NCBI GenBank assembly: GCA_963851365.1
Contig: CAWKPA010000001.1
Location: 167,013 to 231,012 of the forward strand
Direction: 5' to 3'
Origin: an uncultured delta proteobacterium
GTDB taxonomy: Bacteria; Desulfobacterota; Binatia; DP-6
DNA length: 64,000 nt
Below, one piece after another: positions 15,560-55,121 of this stretch (the first letter of the stretch is position 1; each line of letters starts with the position of its first letter). The notes beneath the pieces were generated by a model. The model did not search any database, had not been told where the DNA came from, and worked only from the letters and a program-made list of their open reading frames with translations. Made by a program: the position numbers and the translations under genes.

Positions 15560-17116
15560 GTGCAGGCACACGGCCACACGATCTTCTCGATCGTCGCGCT
15601 GGCGGCAGCGGCGACGGCGTGTCACTGGGCCGTGCGCCGAGCCGGACGGCGGCTGCCGTTGGCGCTCACCCGCCGCCGGATCGACCCGCGCGCGGCGCAT
15701 CCCGACCCGTCCCAACAGCACGTCGCCGACCTCCTCGTCCCACCGACGATCATCGTCATCTGGGGGGCGGCCCTCTGGGCCGCGACACGCGTGTCCCCGG
15801 CGCTGGACACCGCGGGGGGCGAGGCGGTGCACGCGGCCCAGGCCGCGGTCACGGCGCCGCTCTTCGCGGTCGACGGCCGGAGCTATGCTGCCCTGGACCT
15901 GGTCGCGATTCCGATCCTGCTGGGACTGCTCTGGTGGATCGTCGGCGTCGCGGCCCGCGCCGCGCAATCGCGGTTGCCGGGCTCCTTCGGGCTCGAACGG
16001 GGGGCGCAGCAGACCTTCGCCACGCTGGGACGGCTGGTCCTCACCGCCGTCGGCGCCTTGATCCTGCTCCAGGCATGGGGCTTCGACGTGCGCGGGCTCG
16101 CGATCGCGGCGAGCGTGCTCGGCGTCGGCATCGGGTTCGGGCTGCAACACCTCGCCAACAACCTGGTGAGTGGACTGGTGATCGGCCTCGAGCGTCCCGT
16201 GAAACCCGGGGACTACATCAGCGTGGGGGCGCTGCAGGGCACCGTCGAACGCATCGGTGCGCGGAGCGTCGAGCTCGTCACCCGCGACCGCGTGTCCATC
16301 CTCATCCCGAACGCGCGCCTGCTCGAGCAGGAGATCGTCAACTGGAGCCACGGGGACCCGACGTGTCGCGTCCACGTGCCCATTGGCGTCGCCTACGGGT
16401 CGGATGTCCAGGCCGTGCGCGCCGCCCTCCTCGACGCGGCGAGTCGGCATCCCAGGGTGCTCGCCGACCCGCGGCCCTCGGTGGAATTCCGCGCATTCGG
16501 CGACAGCGCGCTCTTGTTCGAGCTCGAGGTCTGGACCCGCGATCCCCGGACACAGCACGACCTCGTCAGCGACCTGAACTACCGCATCGACGGCGCGCTT
16601 CGCCGCCACGGCGTGTCGGTTCCGTTTCCCCAACGGGACATCCACCTCCGTACGCCCGACCTCGCGGCGGTCGCGCTCGCCTTCGCTCGCCACCACGTGG
16701 GCGACGACGCGCTGGCAGCGGCCCATGCCATGCTGGGCACCGGGCGGGCGCCGCGGTCCAACGGCGCGGACGACGAGGCGGTTCCGGAGCCACCGTGCCG
16801 GACGTGGGACGCCGCGGCCGTGGCCCGGCTGGTCGCGCGGCTCCGCAGCCGCGACGGACTCGCCATCGCCAACCGCCGCCATCGCCTCACGACGTACGAG
16901 CGCTGCTTCGTCGGCAGGGAGGCCGTCGACTGGCTCGTCCGGCAGGAGGCCCTCACGCGCGACGAAGCGGTCGCCGTGGGGCAACTCCTGGTCACCCGAG
17001 GCGTGATCCACCACGTGCTCGACGAACATCCGTTCCGCGACGCCGACCTGTTCTATCGGTTCGCCTGCGACGAACCCGCGCGATCAGATGCCGCCGGGGC
17101 CGCGCCCAGCCCCTGA
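15560..17116 (+). CDS. MscS mechanosensitive channel with C-terminal DEP domain
   Basis: GVGIGFGLQ..NLVSG, ERPVKPGD and FPQRDIH; C-terminal CFVGREAVDWL..EAVAVGQLL..IHHV..FYRF. Confidence 0.88.
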   Translation: MQAHGHTIFSIVALAAAATACHWAVRRAGRRLPLALTRRRIDPRAAHPDPSQQHVADLLVPPTIIVIWGAALWAATRVSPALDTAGGEAVHAAQAAVTAPLFAVDGRSYAALDLVAIPILLGLLWWIVGVAARAAQSRLPGSFGLERGAQQTFATLGRLVLTAVGALILLQAWGFDVRGLAIAASVLGVGIGFGLQHLANNLVSGLVIGLERPVKPGDYISVGALQGTVERIGARSVELVTRDRVSILIPNARLLEQEIVNWSHGDPTCRVHVPIGVAYGSDVQAVRAALLDAASRHPRVLADPRPSVEFRAFGDSALLFELEVWTRDPRTQHDLVSDLNYRIDGALRRHGVSVPFPQRDIHLRTPDLAAVALAFARHHVGDDALAAAHAMLGTGRAPRSNGADDEAVPEPPCRTWDAAAVARLVARLRSRDGLAIANRRHRLTTYERCFVGREAVDWLVRQEALTRDEAVAVGQLLVTRGVIHHVLDEHPFRDADLFYRFACDEPARSDAAGAAPSP

Positions 17117-17978: not shown

Positions 17979-19523
17979 ATGAAGCTTCTTGCCGTTCACC
18001 CGAGTAGCCTGATGTATTCGCGGATCTACCTCCGCCTCGAGCCGCTCGGACTCGAGCTGGTGGCGGCCGCGGCGCGAAAGGCGGGCCACGACGTCCGTCT
18101 GATCGACCTGCAGAGCGAGACACAAGACGACTACGTCCGCCTGCTCGACGAGTGGCGGCCCGACGCGGTGTGCTTCTCCGGCAACTACCTGGCCAACGTC
18201 CCGGAGATCGTCGATCTGGCCAAGCTGACGCACGAGCGGTTGCCGGCCACCTTCGTGTTCGTCGGCGGCCACAGCGCGTCCTTCACCGCGCGCGAATTGC
18301 TCGAGCACGCCGAGGGAGCGCTCGGCTGCGTGCTGCGCGGCGAGGGCGAGCCGGCGATCGCCCCGCTGCTCGACGCCGTGAAGCACGATCGCGGCGCCAT
18401 CGGAAAGGTTCCCGGGGCCATCACCCTGGACGGCGAGGGCCCGCCGCCGCTGTTCGTGCATCACCTGGACGACCTCAGGCCGGCGCGGGACCTCCTGCGC
18501 CACCGCCGCCGCTACTACATCGGTCAGCTCGACCCCGCCGCCTCGATCGAGTTCAGCCGAGGGTGCCCGTGGGACTGCACGTTCTGCAGCGCGTGGACGT
18601 TCTACGGCCGGAGCTACCGCGTGAAGAGCCCCGAGTGCGCCGTCGAGGAGGTGGCGTCGATCCGCGAGCCCGGGCTGTTCATCCTGGACGACGTCGCGTT
18701 CATCCAGGCCGAGCACGGCATGGCCATCGGCGAGGCGATCGCCCGCCGCGGCATCCAGAAGCGGTACTGGCTCGAGACCCGCGCCGACGTGCTGCTGCGC
18801 AACAAGGAGGTCTTCCGGCTCTGGGCCCGGCTCGGGCTCAAGACCATGTTCATCGGCCTGGAGGCGCTCGACGAGGAGGGGCTCCTGAAGTTCCGCAAGC
18901 GCGTCACGGCGCCCAAGAACTTCGAGGCGCTCGAATTCGCGCGGACGCTCGGTGTGAATGTCGCCATCAACATCATCGCCGATCCCGACTGGGACCGCGA
19001 GCGGTTCCGCGTCATCCGCGAGTGGTGCGCAGAGATGCCCGAAGTGGTGAACGTGAGCGTCAACACGCCCTACCCCGGCACCGAAACCTGGTTCACCGAG
19101 TCACGCCGCATCACGTCGCGCGACTATCGGCTGTTCGACATCCAGCACGCCGTGCTCCCCACCAAGTTGCCGCTGCACGAGTTCTACGAGGAACTGGTGG
19201 CGACGCAGCAGGTGCTGGCCCGCAAGCATCTGGGCGCCCGACAGATCTGGGGCGCCGCCCGCAACGTGGCGCGGCTACTGGCCAAAGGGCAGACGAACTT
19301 CCTCCGCATGCTGTTCAAGTTCAACAGCGTGTACGATCCGAAGCTCCAGATGGCCGACCACGCCCAGCCGGTGCGCTACGAGATGCCGCTGCCGCCGGCG
19401 CCCAAGGAGAAGGTCGCCGCCGAAACGCTCTACATCCATCCGGGCCGCGGCCGCCGCGGCCGAGAGCTCGACACGGCGACCGAGCAGTTCGTCGAGGAGA
19501 CCCGGATGGGCGAGGCGATCTGA
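17979..19523 (+). CDS. hpnR: Hopanoid C-3 methylase (B12-dependent radical SAM)
   Basis: N-terminus MKLLAVHPSSLMYSRIYLRLEPLGLE; SRGCPWDCTFC; NTPYPGTETW; LFDIQHAVLPT; C-terminal FVEETR. Confidence 0.9.
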   Translation: MKLLAVHPSSLMYSRIYLRLEPLGLELVAAAARKAGHDVRLIDLQSETQDDYVRLLDEWRPDAVCFSGNYLANVPEIVDLAKLTHERLPATFVFVGGHSASFTARELLEHAEGALGCVLRGEGEPAIAPLLDAVKHDRGAIGKVPGAITLDGEGPPPLFVHHLDDLRPARDLLRHRRRYYIGQLDPAASIEFSRGCPWDCTFCSAWTFYGRSYRVKSPECAVEEVASIREPGLFILDDVAFIQAEHGMAIGEAIARRGIQKRYWLETRADVLLRNKEVFRLWARLGLKTMFIGLEALDEEGLLKFRKRVTAPKNFEALEFARTLGVNVAINIIADPDWDRERFRVIREWCAEMPEVVNVSVNTPYPGTETWFTESRRITSRDYRLFDIQHAVLPTKLPLHEFYEELVATQQVLARKHLGARQIWGAARNVARLLAKGQTNFLRMLFKFNSVYDPKLQMADHAQPVRYEMPLPPAPKEKVAAETLYIHPGRGRRGRELDTATEQFVEETRMGEAI

Positions 19524-22683: not shown

Positions 22684-24900
22684 ATGTACCGCTGGCTCGC
22701 TCATCTCGCTCTGCGCAGGCACCGCGCCATCTTGACGGCGAGCGGAATCGTGCTCGCACTCGCCGCGCTGGTGCTCTGGCACGGGGGCACCCTCAGCTCG
22801 GGCACCACGCAGGGCATCGAGTCGGAAGTCGCGCAGCAGCTCGTGTCCCGGAAGCTCGCCTATCCGGGCGAGTCGTCGTTCCTCGTCCTGCTGCGCGGGA
22901 AGGACGGACTGACCTGGAACGACCCCCGCTACCGCGCCGCGGTGGGCGAGGCGCTCGCGGGATTGCGCGCGGATCCGCGCGTGCGCGCCGTGCTCGCCCC
23001 CGACGATGCGCCGCAGCCCGTCGCGGAGCGCCTGGTGTCGGTCGACCGCACGCTCGCCCTGGCGGTCGTCACGCTGCGCGACTCCTACTTCGGCGCGGCC
23101 GCCGCCTATCCCTCCCTGCGGGACACGGTGCATTCGGACCGGCTCACCGCCGGTTTCACCGGCCATCTCGCCTATCGCCACGATCTCGACCGGACACTCG
23201 AGCACGACGTGCTCTTCGCGGAGCTGGTGAGCCTGCCGCTCGCGATGCTCGTGTTGATCGCCGTCTTCCGCACCGTCGGGGCGGCCGCGGTGTCGGTCGG
23301 CGTCGGCGCCCTCGCCGTCGTCACCGGCATCGCCGCGATCACGGCGCTCTCCCGGGTGGTCGACATCGCGGTCTACGCGATCAACGTCGCGTCGCTGATC
23401 GGCCTCGGGGTGGCGATCGACTACTCGCTCTTCATCGTCAGCCGCTACCGCGACGAGCTCGAGGCGGGCGCCACCCCGGACGACGCGCTCGTCACCGCGC
23501 TCGACACGTCCGGGCACGCGGTCGTCTTCTCCGGGTTCGCGGTCGCCATCGGGCTCGGCAGTCTGCTCTTCTTCAAGGGATCGTTCCTCGCGACGATGGG
23601 GGTGGGCGGCACGATCGTCGTCGCGCTCGCCGTCGTCTTCGCCCTCACCTTCCTCCCCGCGCTCCTGGTCGCGCTCGGGCCCCGGATCGACGCGGGGCGC
23701 CTGCCACTCCCGCGGCTCGGCGCGTTCGACGGCATGTGGCACCGGATCGCCACCTGGGTGATGCGGCGGCCGGTGCTCGTCCTCCTCCCGACGCTCGGCC
23801 TGCTCCTCGCCCTCGGGTCGCCGTTCTTCCGCCTCGCGATCGCGGCCGCCGACATCGACACGCTGCCGCGCGGCATCGAGGCCCGAGACGTCTACGAGGA
23901 ACTCCGCCAGGCCTTTCCGGACCAGGCGCGGACGCGGCTCCTGGTGGTGGCGCGCTACCCCAGCGCGCCGGCCTATACGCCGGAGCGGGTCGGGCCGCTC
24001 TACGACCTCGCCCAACGGCTCGCCAAGCTGCCCGGCGTGGTGAAGGTCGAGGGCGCCGTGGACACCGATCCGCGCCTGTCGCGCGCCTACTTCGAGGCGG
24101 ACGCGGAAATGGCCGTCGACGAGCTGCCCGCTGCGGCGCGCCGGATGCGCGCCATGACGACGTCCGAGAACCTGGCGCTCCTCACCGTGCTCACCGACGC
24201 CCCGCCCACGAGCGAGGCGGCGCGCGCGCTGGTGCGCGCCATTCGCGCCGATCGCCGCGTCGGCGACGGCGAGATCGTCGTCGGCGGCGCGCCCGCCAAC
24301 GACGTCGACCTGAACGCCTTCATCCTGGCGCGCGCCCCGTACGCGATCGCCTTCGTGCTGCTCGTCACCTACGTGGTGTTGTTCGCCATGCTGCGATCGG
24401 TCCTGCTGCCGCTCAAGGCGGTGGTGATGAACCTCCTCTCGATCAGCGCGTCGTTCGGCGCCCTCGTCTGGATCTTCGAGGAAGGTCACCTCGCCGGCCT
24501 GCTCCGCTTCGAACCCGGCCCGCTCGACGCCGCGGTGCCGGTCCTGCTGTTCTGCGCCGTGTTCGGCCTGTCGATGGACTACGAGGTGCTGATGCTGTCG
24601 CGGATGCGGGAGGAGTATCTCCGGACCGGCGACAACACGTGGGCGGTCGCGGAGGGGCTCGAGCGCACCGGCCGGCTGATCACCAGCGCCGCCGCCATCA
24701 TGGTCACGGTCTTCGGGGCCTTCGGCCTGGCGCGGGTGATCCTCGTCAAGTCGATGGGCGTCGCCCTCGCGGTGGCCGTGGGACTCGACGCGACGCTGGT
24801 GCGCGTCCTGATCGTCCCCGCCACCATGCGCCTCTTCGGCGATCTCAACTGGTGGGCTCCCGCCTGGCTCGGCGGCGTGCGGCCCCGGTCGACTCCCTGA
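22684..24900 (+). CDS. MMPL family (RND) lipid transporter
   Basis: GLGVAIDYSLFIVSRYRDEL, FGLSMDYEVL, ITSAAAIM and DATLVR. Confidence 0.93.
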   Translation: MYRWLAHLALRRHRAILTASGIVLALAALVLWHGGTLSSGTTQGIESEVAQQLVSRKLAYPGESSFLVLLRGKDGLTWNDPRYRAAVGEALAGLRADPRVRAVLAPDDAPQPVAERLVSVDRTLALAVVTLRDSYFGAAAAYPSLRDTVHSDRLTAGFTGHLAYRHDLDRTLEHDVLFAELVSLPLAMLVLIAVFRTVGAAAVSVGVGALAVVTGIAAITALSRVVDIAVYAINVASLIGLGVAIDYSLFIVSRYRDELEAGATPDDALVTALDTSGHAVVFSGFAVAIGLGSLLFFKGSFLATMGVGGTIVVALAVVFALTFLPALLVALGPRIDAGRLPLPRLGAFDGMWHRIATWVMRRPVLVLLPTLGLLLALGSPFFRLAIAAADIDTLPRGIEARDVYEELRQAFPDQARTRLLVVARYPSAPAYTPERVGPLYDLAQRLAKLPGVVKVEGAVDTDPRLSRAYFEADAEMAVDELPAAARRMRAMTTSENLALLTVLTDAPPTSEAARALVRAIRADRRVGDGEIVVGGAPANDVDLNAFILARAPYAIAFVLLVTYVVLFAMLRSVLLPLKAVVMNLLSISASFGALVWIFEEGHLAGLLRFEPGPLDAAVPVLLFCAVFGLSMDYEVLMLSRMREEYLRTGDNTWAVAEGLERTGRLITSAAAIMVTVFGAFGLARVILVKSMGVALAVAVGLDATLVRVLIVPATMRLFGDLNWWAPAWLGGVRPRSTP

Positions 24901-24934
24901 TTCCCTTTTGCGCCGAAGAGCGTATGGTGCGCGC

Positions 24935-25246
24935 ATGACCAGACGTCTCCTGCTGGCGATGGGGGCCGTCGCCTCGGCACTCGCGGCGCTGCCGCGCGTC
25001 GGGACGGCCGAAGACCGGCAACGCCGCTACGTGATCGGCGTCGCCGGCATGACCTGACCCTCGGGCTGCGCACAGAGGGTCCGTGGGATCCTCCAGACAC
25101 TCCCGGCGATCGAGCAGGTCGAGGTCGATTTCGACGCCAAGACGGCCACCGTCACGTGCAAACCCGGCGAGTCGCTGGCGCGCGATGCGGTAGCCAAGGC
25201 GTTCGAAGGCACCCGGTACTCGGTGCGCAGCTTCGACGCCCCCTGA
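24935..25246 (+). CDS. Secreted HMA/MerP-like selenoprotein (Sec41; GMTUPSGC)
   Basis: Translates as [72 protein letters not shown]... The TGA at 25055-25057 sits at the first Cys of the HMA motif, and the HMA fold continues in frame. Confidence 0.85.
25075..25093 (+). promoter_or_regulatory. Candidate bacterial SECIS element
   Basis: GAGGGTCC-GTG-GGATCCTC forms an 8-bp stem (one G-U pair); the apical loop starts with GU, 25 nt after the UGA. Confidence 0.6.
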
Positions 25247-25286
25247 CCCCGCTGGCCGCATCGTCCGGTCCGCGTTAAGCAGCGGC

Positions 25287-26333
25287 ATGCTCTTCCGGCA
25301 ATTGTTCGACGCGCAGTCGTCGACCTACACATATCTGCTCGCCGACGAGACGACGCGCGAGGCGCTGCTCGTCGACCCGGTGTTCGAGCAGTTCGAGCGG
25401 GATCGGGCCCTGCTCCGCGAGCTGGGGCTCGTCCTGCGGTACACGCTGGAGACCCACGTCCACGCCGACCACGTGACGGGCGCGTGGTTGCTCCGCAACG
25501 CGGTGGGCTCGCGCATCGTCCTGTCGCGCCACGGCGGCGCCACCGGCGCCGATCTGTACGTGGACCACGGGGACACCGTCGCCGCGGGCGCGGTCGCGCT
25601 CGAGGTCCGAGCCACGCCCGGACACACCGACGGCTGCGTCACCTACGTCACCGCCGACCACCGCATGGCGTTCACCGGCGACGCGCTCCTCATTCGCAGC
25701 GCGGGCCGCACCGACTTCCAGCAAGGCGATCCGGGGCTGCTCTACCGGTCGATCCGCGAGCAGATCTTCACGCTGCCCGACGACTGCCTCCTCTACCCCG
25801 GTCACGACTACAGCGGCCGCACCGTCACCACCGTCGGCGAGGAGAAGCGCTGGAACCCGCGTGTCGGCGGCGAAGCGAGCGAGGAGGATTTCGTCGGCTA
25901 TATGCGCAACCTGGGCCTGCCGCATCCCAAGCAGATCGACGTCGCCGTACCGGCGAACCTGCGGTGCGGCGAGCCCGCGGGAGGCGCCGTTCCGGCCAGG
26001 CCGGCGTGGGGACCGGCCGTCCGCACGTTCGCCGGGACGCCGGAGATCGACCCGACCTGGGTGGCCGACCACCGCGATGCCGTCACCATCCTCGACGTCC
26101 GCGAGCTCGCCGAGCGCACCGGCGACCTGGGGCACGTCGACGGCAGCATCCACATCCCCTTGGGCGAGCTGCGGGCGCGACTGGCCGAGGTGCCGACGGG
26201 CAAGCCCGTCATCACCATCTGCCGGTCCGGCCGGCGCTCGGCGCAGGCCGCCGTCATCCTCGAGCAGGCGGGCCTGCCCGAGGTGGCGAACTCCGCGGGC
26301 GGCATGCTGCGCTGGCGCGCGCTCGGCCTGTGA
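25287..26333 (+). CDS. Persulfide dioxygenase (MBL fold) - rhodanese fusion
   Basis: [18 protein letters not shown] and YPGHDY; rhodanese CRSGRRS. Confidence 0.9.
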
Positions 26334-27160
26334 CGACAGGCCTCCTCTCACCGGCGCTCCTCCGCGGGCTGCTCGCCTCGCCGCTCGGGCTGCTGGTCGG
26401 GTTCTCGCTCGGCGCCCTCGGCAGCGGCGGGTCCATCCTGGCCGTGCCGTTCCTGGTGTACGCCGCCGGCCAGTCACCGCAGGAGGCCACCGCCGCCAGC
26501 CTGCTGCTGGTCGGCACCGCGGCAGTGTCGGGCTTGCCGAAGCACTGGCGGGCCGGCCGCGTGCGCACACTCACCGGCATCGTCTTCGGCCTCGCCGGCA
26601 TCGGCGGCTCGCTCGCCGGCACCGCGGTCAACCGTCGCATCGACCCGAACATGCTGCTGCTCGCGTTCAGCGGCCTCATCCTGGTGGCCGCGTGGCGCAT
26701 GGTGACCGCATGTCCCACCTGTACGCGCGTCGGCGAAGCGCGCGAGCTGGCGACCGGCGAGCACGCGGTCCATCGGGACCTCGACGCGGGGCGGGTGCTG
26801 CTGCTCCTCGCGGCCGGCACCGCCGTCGGCTTCTTGACCGGGCTCTTCGGCGTCGGCGGCGGCTTCGTGATCGTGCCCATGCTCACCTTGCTGCTGGGCT
26901 TCGCGATGCCCGAGGCCATCGGCACGTCGCTGCTGGTCGTCGCGATCAACAGCGTCGTCGCGCTCCTCGCCCGCCTCGGCTCCGCCCACCTCGATTGGCT
27001 GCTGGCGGGGGCGTTCACCGCCACGGCGGTCATCGGCGCACAGATCGGCGGACACGTCGCCGACCGGCTCGATCCCGAGCGCACCCTGCGGCTCTTCGCC
27101 GCCGCCCTGGTCCTGCTCGCGCTCTACACCGGCGGGCGTGCTCTCCTGGCGGGCGCCTGA
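26330..27160 (+). CDS. TauE/SafE family sulfite exporter
   Basis: Duplicated [10 protein letters not shown] / [10 protein letters not shown] motifs and AIGTSL; GTGA overlap. Confidence 0.9.
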
Positions 27161-55025: not shown

Positions 55026-55121
55026 GGAGAAGGAAGAGGCCCGGTGGCCTCACCGGTCTTCAAAACCGCGTTGTCCCGCCTGGCGCGGGATGGAAGGTTC
55101 GACTCCTTCCCTTCTCCGCCA
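55026..55121 (+). tRNA. selC: tRNA-Sec (anticodon TCA)
   Basis: 8-bp acceptor GGAGAAGG/CCTTCTCC; 6-bp D stem GAGGCC/GGCCTC with 4-nt loop; anticodon loop CT-TCA-AA; long variable arm; 5-bp T stem with TTCGACT; G discriminator and CCA. Confidence 0.95.

Follow-up and report, generated by a model that had tools for sequence, protein, structure and literature searches.

Selenoproteins of the HMA type are already known as a kind, and the closest described systems to the one reported here lie among them and among the cysteine-based proteins of the same fold. The HMA-related entries in the tables of two reviews, of 2022 and 2026, comprise a 'putative mercuric reductase' with a UxxU motif, which is of the type modelled as NF041115 (UxxU_metal_bind), a cation ATPase with UxxC, and MerT (PMC9312934; PMC13188914). 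As these tables present them, the HMA transporter selenoproteins, MerT_CopZ_Se (NF045683) included, have selenocysteine (Sec) in place of the first cysteine of the HMA metal motif. They belong to membrane transporters, either as cytoplasmic domains or as fusions, and two residues separate their ligands. Among the selenoproteins tabulated in a 2008 ocean-sampling study is a 'Mercuric transport protein MerP', for which 2 sequences are counted and no motif is stated (PMC2398784); this entry probably does not belong to the family described below, because the last column of the table, which we take as the count of Cys homologues, stands at 0. Haft's preprint, in the portion available to us, mentions selenoproteins of the MerT family and not a U-x3-C family. 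The tables and main-text passages of the two reviews yielded no entry under UxxxC, HMA or MerP, the accessible parts of the deep-Sep and BSepDB papers held none of the HMA-selenoprotein terms searched for, and the passages seen of the literature on HMA, MerP and CopZ selenoproteins and on selenocysteine in Binatota gave nothing closer. For HMA ligands spaced by three residues we found no study, the cysteine form included. Outside the fold, the available text of one paper describes Sco/SenC as an extracytoplasmic copper-binding protein with C-x3-C spacing (PMC11213822). Against this background the family of U-x3-C HMA proteins reported here is real and apparently uncatalogued.

The gene lies in the window, that is, the whole stretch of 64,000 nucleotides that was analysed, at a place where a plain listing of open reading frames gives only two fragments, 24908-25057 (49 aa) and 25156-25278 (40 aa), on either side of an in-frame TGA; it is indeed hidden from the ORF track, as the preliminary description of this DNA had stated. 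The ATG at 24935, the in-frame TGA at 25055-25057 and the terminator TGA at 25244-25246 are all present, and translation through the first TGA reproduces the product quoted there, a protein of 103 aa with the loop GMT-U-PSG-C, in which U41 and C45 form the pair of interest. The start was picked by alignment with relatives; translation could also begin at the in-frame TTG at 24908. The features of what we call the Sec-HMA gene are as follows:

24935-25246, + strand: Sec-HMA gene, 103 codons and a TGA stop, with the UGA at 25055-25057 read as Sec
24935-25024, + strand: putative N-terminal export region, residues 1-30 (sequence; pLDDT 48-65; similar N-termini in 45 aligned relatives)
25025-25237, + strand: predicted HMA-fold domain, residues 31-101 (AlphaFold2, Foldseek, Pfam PF00403)
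25055-25057, + strand: Sec codon UGA, U41, first ligand position of the loop (TGA in 30 loci, TGC/TGT in 16)
25067-25069, + strand: TGC codon of the partner Cys45
25075-25093, + strand: SECIS-like hairpin GAGGGUCC-GUG-GGAUCCUC, 8 bp, stem 25075-25082/25086-25093, loop GUG 25083-25085

Our explanation of the locus as a whole is that it encodes an exported HMA selenoprotein with a role in binding soft metals; we give it a probability of roughly 0.7, with the weight resting towards the selenoprotein part. That the gene is a genuine selenoprotein gene is very likely.

The fold had been recognized from the sequence as that of HMA domains, and both a Pfam match and a confident predicted structure agree. 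The match to PF00403 spans the TGA (residues 36-92, 41.8 bits against a gathering threshold of 24.8). The AlphaFold2 model, computed from a 46-sequence alignment, averages 83.6 in pLDDT, the block means for residues 31-100 being 93-97, and has a predicted order E-H-E-E-H-E (beta 31-37, helix 45-54, beta 59-65, beta 70-75, helix 83-89, beta 96-101), which together with Foldseek points to the beta-alpha-beta-beta-alpha-beta topology of HMA domains. The top solved structures in Foldseek are the ATP7B metal-binding domain (6a71), MerP (1osd), HMA7, Atx1 (1cc7) and ZntA, with E-values from 8e-5 and TM-scores of 0.63-0.83 on the target, and the family profile matches MerP 1afi at E 2.5e-16. In the model Sec41 falls in the beta1-alpha1 loop and Cys45 where helix alpha1 makes its first turn, which is where HMA domains have their two ligands. 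In the three alignments shown, solved HMA domains leave a gap of one residue against the loop of this protein, and the motif is GMT-U-PSG-C rather than the canonical GMxCxxC with its two-residue spacing. Residues 1-30 consist of an n-region with T-R-R, a hydrophobic core and a linker, and are probably a signal peptide, perhaps of a Tat-like kind. All family members displayed have hydrophobic, signal-peptide-like N-termini, with R-R in some and a lipobox-like Cys in others. The hydrophobic sequence, the low pLDDT of this region and the same type of N-terminus in the aligned relatives are in line with the export signal read from the gene at the outset.

None of the NCBIfam models is passed by the Sec-HMA protein, which scores against the relevant ones as follows:

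CopZ_AFE_1862 (NF047957), the best NCBIfam match: 34 bits, cut-off 85
UxxU_metal_bind (NF041115): 30.3 bits, cut-off 95
MerT_CopZ_Se (NF045683): 27.7 bits, cut-off 375
CopZ (NF033795): 26.6 bits, cut-off 91
MerP (TIGR02052): 26.1 bits, cut-off 92.55

Comparison with the described systems shows that: 1) like MerP (structural match to 1osd at E 9.9e-5, TM 0.74 on the target), the protein would be a small exported single HMA domain with two chalcogen ligands, one in the beta1-alpha1 loop and one at the start of the helix, but its first ligand is Sec, its spacer has three rather than two residues, and merT, merA and merR are not found nearby. 2) With the NF041115 proteins it shares an HMA-type domain and a Sec in the metal loop, whereas it has one Sec and not two, U-x3-C and not UxxU, and an export-type N-terminus. 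3) The HMA transporter selenoproteins resemble it in the replacement of the first ligand, and differ in that the Sec-HMA protein is free-standing, has an export-type N-terminus and contains no MerT part. 4) CopZ and Atx1 have the same fold and a MxCxxC-type loop, and Cys-form relatives of our protein are labelled 'copper chaperone CopZ' by their sources; CopZ, however, is cytoplasmic and has CxxC, unlike a protein with an export-type N-terminus. 5) To Sco/SenC the resemblance is one of motif only, as Sco has a thioredoxin fold and a His ligand.

Relatives were sought first in a set of related genomes and then across the class. When 61 such genomes were searched in six frames for the read-through protein, 16 gave matches, of which six, the window's genome included, have one internal TGA. 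An 11-member profile was then applied to 401 genomes belonging to the class and reached 114 of them at E <= 1e-8, a figure that counts in ordinary HMA domains as well as four unpublished genomes, which were left out of further analysis. When the best loci were fetched and re-scanned, we obtained 30 distinct loci with GM[T/H]-U-x3-C and TGA at the same column, and at least 16 with C-x3-C at that column (15 TGC, 1 TGT). The number of Cys forms is a lower bound because six strong stop-free matches (in G199, G075, G097, G146, G200 and G185) were left out; several weaker TGA-bearing matches were likewise left out of the count of Sec forms. A search for homologues with Cys or TGA at the U41 codon, proposed when the gene was noticed, thus turns up both. 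The family profile aligns over positions 2-111, straight through the UGA. Three genomes (G104, G153 and G160) contain Sec and Cys paralogues together, at different loci (L057/L040, L058/L052 and L066/L055). In a weakly resolved tree of 64 columns, from which the Sec and SECIS columns had been removed, the Cys form of the genome G006 is nested among Sec forms, and the Sec/Cys label requires at least 3 changes, as against about 13 with shuffled labels. Two loci (L074 in G372:C9 and L075 in G394:C66) hold exported-looking HMA genes with GMT-U-GA-C, a TGA at the first ligand and two-residue spacing, which are candidates for a second type of HMA selenoprotein.

In protein databases all 44 relatives found are Cys forms, under source names such as 'copper chaperone CopZ', 'cation transporter' and 'heavy-metal-associated domain-containing protein'. 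The names of close relatives point to Candidatus Binatia or 'Deltaproteobacteria' MAGs. C-x3-C Cys forms are common in the class, and lipoprotein-like C-x3-C forms also occur under names that point to Flavobacterium. The three-residue spacing and the export signal, at first set down as oddities of one gene, are therefore traits of a whole exported C-x3-C HMA family. A word search with the single protein found no relative, and a search for related loci with the single protein gave one locus, in a Planctomycetota MAG, at 35% identity. In the exhaustive profile search multi-HMA proteins prevailed (32379 matches at E <= 0.001), so that the family could not be singled out. Among public sequencing runs none contains the whole Sec-HMA gene. 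A contig from an RNA library (X2, 151 nt, depth 2) lies on 25044-25194; its listed differences are I59V at 25109 and a synonymous one at 25180, with none at the TGA. Since RNA libraries can contain DNA, the contig hints only weakly, if at all, at transcription of a close relative.

The part of the gene beyond the UGA evolves as coding sequence. Over the 45 codons after the UGA, dN/dS is 0.06-0.40 in the 25 closest pairs of Sec forms; the median is 0.47 across the 269 usable of 435 pairs, many of which are near saturation. Judged from these sequence comparisons the codons after the UGA are under purifying selection, and the outcome that the preliminary description named as fatal to its proposal, homologues that never have TGA at this codon together with an absence of such selection downstream, is not what the comparison shows.

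A SECIS is modelled as a stem-loop shortly downstream of the UGA with G/U in its apical loop, and the usual sign of its imprint on coding sequence is a conserved encoded motif. Set against this model, the element at 25075-25093 agrees: the 8-bp hairpin with a GU-led loop noticed earlier is present, its GUG loop starting 25 nt past the last base of the UGA. By energy it does not stand out in this DNA of 72% G+C: for the fold of 76 nt z is 0.20, and 116 of 200 shuffled sequences equal or surpass it; the case therefore had to rest on comparison with relatives. A hairpin with dG <= -7.5 kcal/mol, whose loop starts at +21 to +29, has 3-7 nt and includes a G at its first or second base, is found in 28 of the 30 Sec forms versus 4 of the 16 Cys forms (Fisher p = 3e-6, a value that is only indicative and overstated, because the criteria were narrowed after the data had been seen and the genomes are kin). 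The two remaining Sec forms are L062, whose hairpin reaches -5.5 kcal/mol, and L067, which has no hairpin. Sec-form hairpins lie about 20 nt after the UGA in two registers, and because of these RNAalifold over all 30 gave only 4 pairs; the hairpins were then analysed sequence by sequence and by register subgroup, with these results:

Register 1, 17 sequences: 79.4% of cells paired, 12 cells changed on both sides; slid controls 20-65% paired
Register 2, which holds the window, 13 sequences: 94.5% of cells paired, 7 cells changed on both sides; slid controls 27-56% paired

In each register none of 500 shuffles reached the observed paired share, number of double-change cells or covariation score, although the tested structures are favoured in this comparison because they were derived from the same sequences. 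The hairpin encodes R-V-R, which is kept in the Sec forms and missing from the Cys forms. Rfam gives no match at the gene, the only hit being dauA with 24.6 bits against a cut-off of 45, which is chance.

The machinery for Sec insertion is complete in the window's genome (13 contigs, 5.15 Mb, 94.6% complete). The tRNA previously reported at 55026 is recovered by both ARAGORN and Rfam:

55026-55121, + strand: tRNA-Sec, anticodon TCA (ARAGORN; Rfam RF01852, 67.7 bits against 47)

The presence of selA, selB and selD, proposed as a check, is confirmed: the three genes adjoin one another on another contig of the genome, and all score over the curated cut-offs (selB 339.8 bits, selA 537.9 bits, selD 363.3 bits). 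The selD gene (G000 contig 10, 543147-544067, - strand, locus L006) itself encodes a selenoprotein, with a G-U-A-G-K active site and one in-frame TGA; its UGA is followed by GGUCC-GGC-GGACC, which resembles GGGUCC-GUG-GGAUCC in the Sec-HMA gene. In the other family-bearing genomes selB is over the cut-off in 38 of 42. Sec-form genomes without it number three of 29 others: G189 (84% complete), G214 (77%) and the fragmented G209, which has a partial selB match of 200 bits. G006, at 100% completeness, is also without selB over the cut-off, its best match being apparently an ordinary elongation factor; the member of the family that this genome carries is a Cys form. The pairing of Sec with Cys at one column, the conserved SECIS-like hairpin, and the occurrence of selA, selB, selD and tRNA-Sec together sustain the original proposal of a hidden selenoprotein.

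On its own strand the gene is flanked closely by these genes:

22684-24900, + strand: MMPL-family membrane transporter, upstream with a 34-nt gap (Pfam PF03176, E 1.4e-71)
25287-26333, + strand: metallo-beta-lactamase (MBL) and rhodanese fusion, downstream with a 40-nt gap (Pfam PF00753, PF00581)
26312-27160, + strand: TauE/SafE-type membrane protein, putative start (GC3-plot frame, translation, Pfam PF01925, E 6.7e-47)

A gene for a fasciclin-domain protein comes after the TauE gene, so that MMPL, Sec-HMA, MBL-rhodanese, TauE and fasciclin follow one another on one strand. These and ABC1 are the neighbours in the window; mer genes (merR, merT, merA) are not among them. The MBL-rhodanese fusion at 25287-26333 is a putative persulfide-dioxygenase/sulfurtransferase, and its pairing with TauE is familiar from sulfide-detoxification clusters. 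The TauE/SafE-type protein contains a C-P-T-C motif. Upstream of these genes the window holds a gene for an MscS-type mechanosensitive channel with a C-terminal DEP domain, unusual in bacteria (15560-17116, + strand), one for a B12-binding radical SAM enzyme (17979-19523, + strand), and two ORFs rich in Ala/Gly, which show a good G+C bias by codon position and have no Pfam match (P0155, 20009-20869, and P0153, 20758-22550, both on the - strand). A small, exported-looking protein without a Pfam family (P0154, 19533-19950, - strand) has a His-rich N-terminal stretch (HEETGDHHEAP...) and could, from this composition, be a metal-binding periplasmic protein.

The arrangement around the Sec-HMA gene is not shared by its relatives. 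With the window's neighbours as queries tblastn gave no match at the other 47 related loci, and in four same-genus genomes there is no synteny of the region. We clustered and annotated 46 neighbourhoods, namely the 12-kb surroundings of 42 related loci, the window and three short contigs, and no conserved operon emerged. A convergent MFS transporter gene abuts 12 of the 16 Cys forms and is co-directional in a 13th, followed by nitroreductase and LMF1/DCC1-like genes. Downstream of Sec forms a co-directional MFS gene comes next in 4 cases and bamD in 6, the remaining neighbours being unrelated enzymes; the association of the family with MFS transporters is a weak lead. Neither the gene nor the related loci scanned with Pfam have mer, cop, cus or P-type ATPase genes beside them. 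The link to Hg, Cu or another soft metal in the preliminary description accordingly gains nothing from context, there being no association with a metal system in the window or in 45 related loci. The chalcogen-binding role mentioned alongside it draws only on the window's own neighbours, the MBL-rhodanese fusion and TauE, which are not conserved beside the relatives.

Because the neighbourhoods are not conserved and contain no mercury, copper or P-type ATPase genes, any function has to be argued from the fold and the ligand pair. From these a periplasmic soft-metal binder or chaperone would be the most likely function, at about even odds. We propose that SelB and tRNA-Sec would decode the UGA at 25055-25057 as Sec, directed by the hairpin at 25075-25093 within the coding sequence, and that Sec41 and Cys45, with three residues between them, would be the ligand pair at the HMA positions. 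Once exported, the selenolate/thiolate pair would bind a soft metal ion, for which Cu(I), Hg(II), Ag(I) and Cd(II) are candidates, and the protein might buffer the metal in the periplasm or pass it to a membrane transporter; selenium may give tighter or faster binding than sulfur.

Against a metal role it can be held that the ligand spacing departs from that of the solved HMA domains aligned, and that U41 and C45 might stay joined as a selenenylsulfide if the periplasm is oxidising. An unlikely alternative is that the protein is a real selenoprotein with a redox function, in which U41/C45 would cycle through a selenenylsulfide and an HMA scaffold would serve as a periplasmic relay for thiol-disulfide exchange or the reduction of peroxides. 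It agrees with the review tables, where most catalogued bacterial selenoproteins have redox motifs of the UxxC/CxxU type (PMC13188914, PMC9312934), and with the MerP crystal structure 1osd, in which, by its title, both cysteines are oxidised. A DCC1-like thiol-disulfide oxidoreductase domain also occurs beside 10 of 16 Cys-form loci and a nitroreductase beside 7 of 16; these recurrent genes, however, lie on the opposite strand, Sec forms have no conserved reductase partner beside them, and the fold is ferredoxin-like and not thioredoxin-like.

A broader form of this idea, which we regard as doubtful, sees in the U-x3-C HMA proteins generally carriers of chalcogen or redox relays, handling persulfide, sulfane sulfur or selenium, rather than metal chaperones; here they would act with the persulfide-dioxygenase/rhodanese, TauE and MMPL proteins, and the Sec/Cys paralogues of G104, G153 and G160 would have distinct or selenium-dependent roles. 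A little more doubtful still is the specific proposal that this selenoprotein carries a chalcogen (sulfane sulfur, persulfide, selenide or Se(0)) for the MBL-rhodanese and TauE proteins, or for MMPL. In its favour, selenolate readily makes Se-S or Se-Se adducts, and four genes of the window (MMPL, Sec-HMA, MBL-rhodanese, TauE) are co-directional with short gaps, of 34 and 40 nt around Sec-HMA. Yet these neighbours are unmatched at the other 47 related loci, the arrangement is missing even from the four same-genus genomes, and the annotated recurrent neighbour clusters contain no rhodanese or sulfur-oxidation gene.

That there is no selenoprotein at all, the gene being a pseudogene or sequencing error, the UGA a stop that yields a 40-residue peptide, or the read-through a matter of Trp or Cys insertion without SelB, is very improbable: gene callers do stop at the TGA, all 44 database relatives are Cys forms, the gene's own terminator is also TGA and the energy of the hairpin is not significant by itself, but 30 genomes, each assembled separately, share the TGA at this codon, dN/dS is low after it, the family profile and the fold continue through it, the hairpin covaries and is a feature specific to the Sec forms, and no part of the Sec machinery is missing, so that we reject pseudogene, sequencing error, UGA termination and Trp read-through.

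The preferred reading, an exported HMA selenoprotein that may bind soft metals, places in one poorly known, uncultured class a family whose Sec forms, though carried by at least 30 species-level genomes, are missing from protein databases because gene callers truncate them at the UGA. The few selenoprotein families of the HMA fold thereby gain one more, and with it a non-canonical ligand spacing of three residues. The conserved hairpins offer a SECIS training set for a lineage of high G+C content, and a metal-type site that occurs with Sec and with Cys, in some cases within the same genome, constitutes a natural experiment on what selenium contributes to the binding of soft metals or chalcogens outside the cytoplasm.
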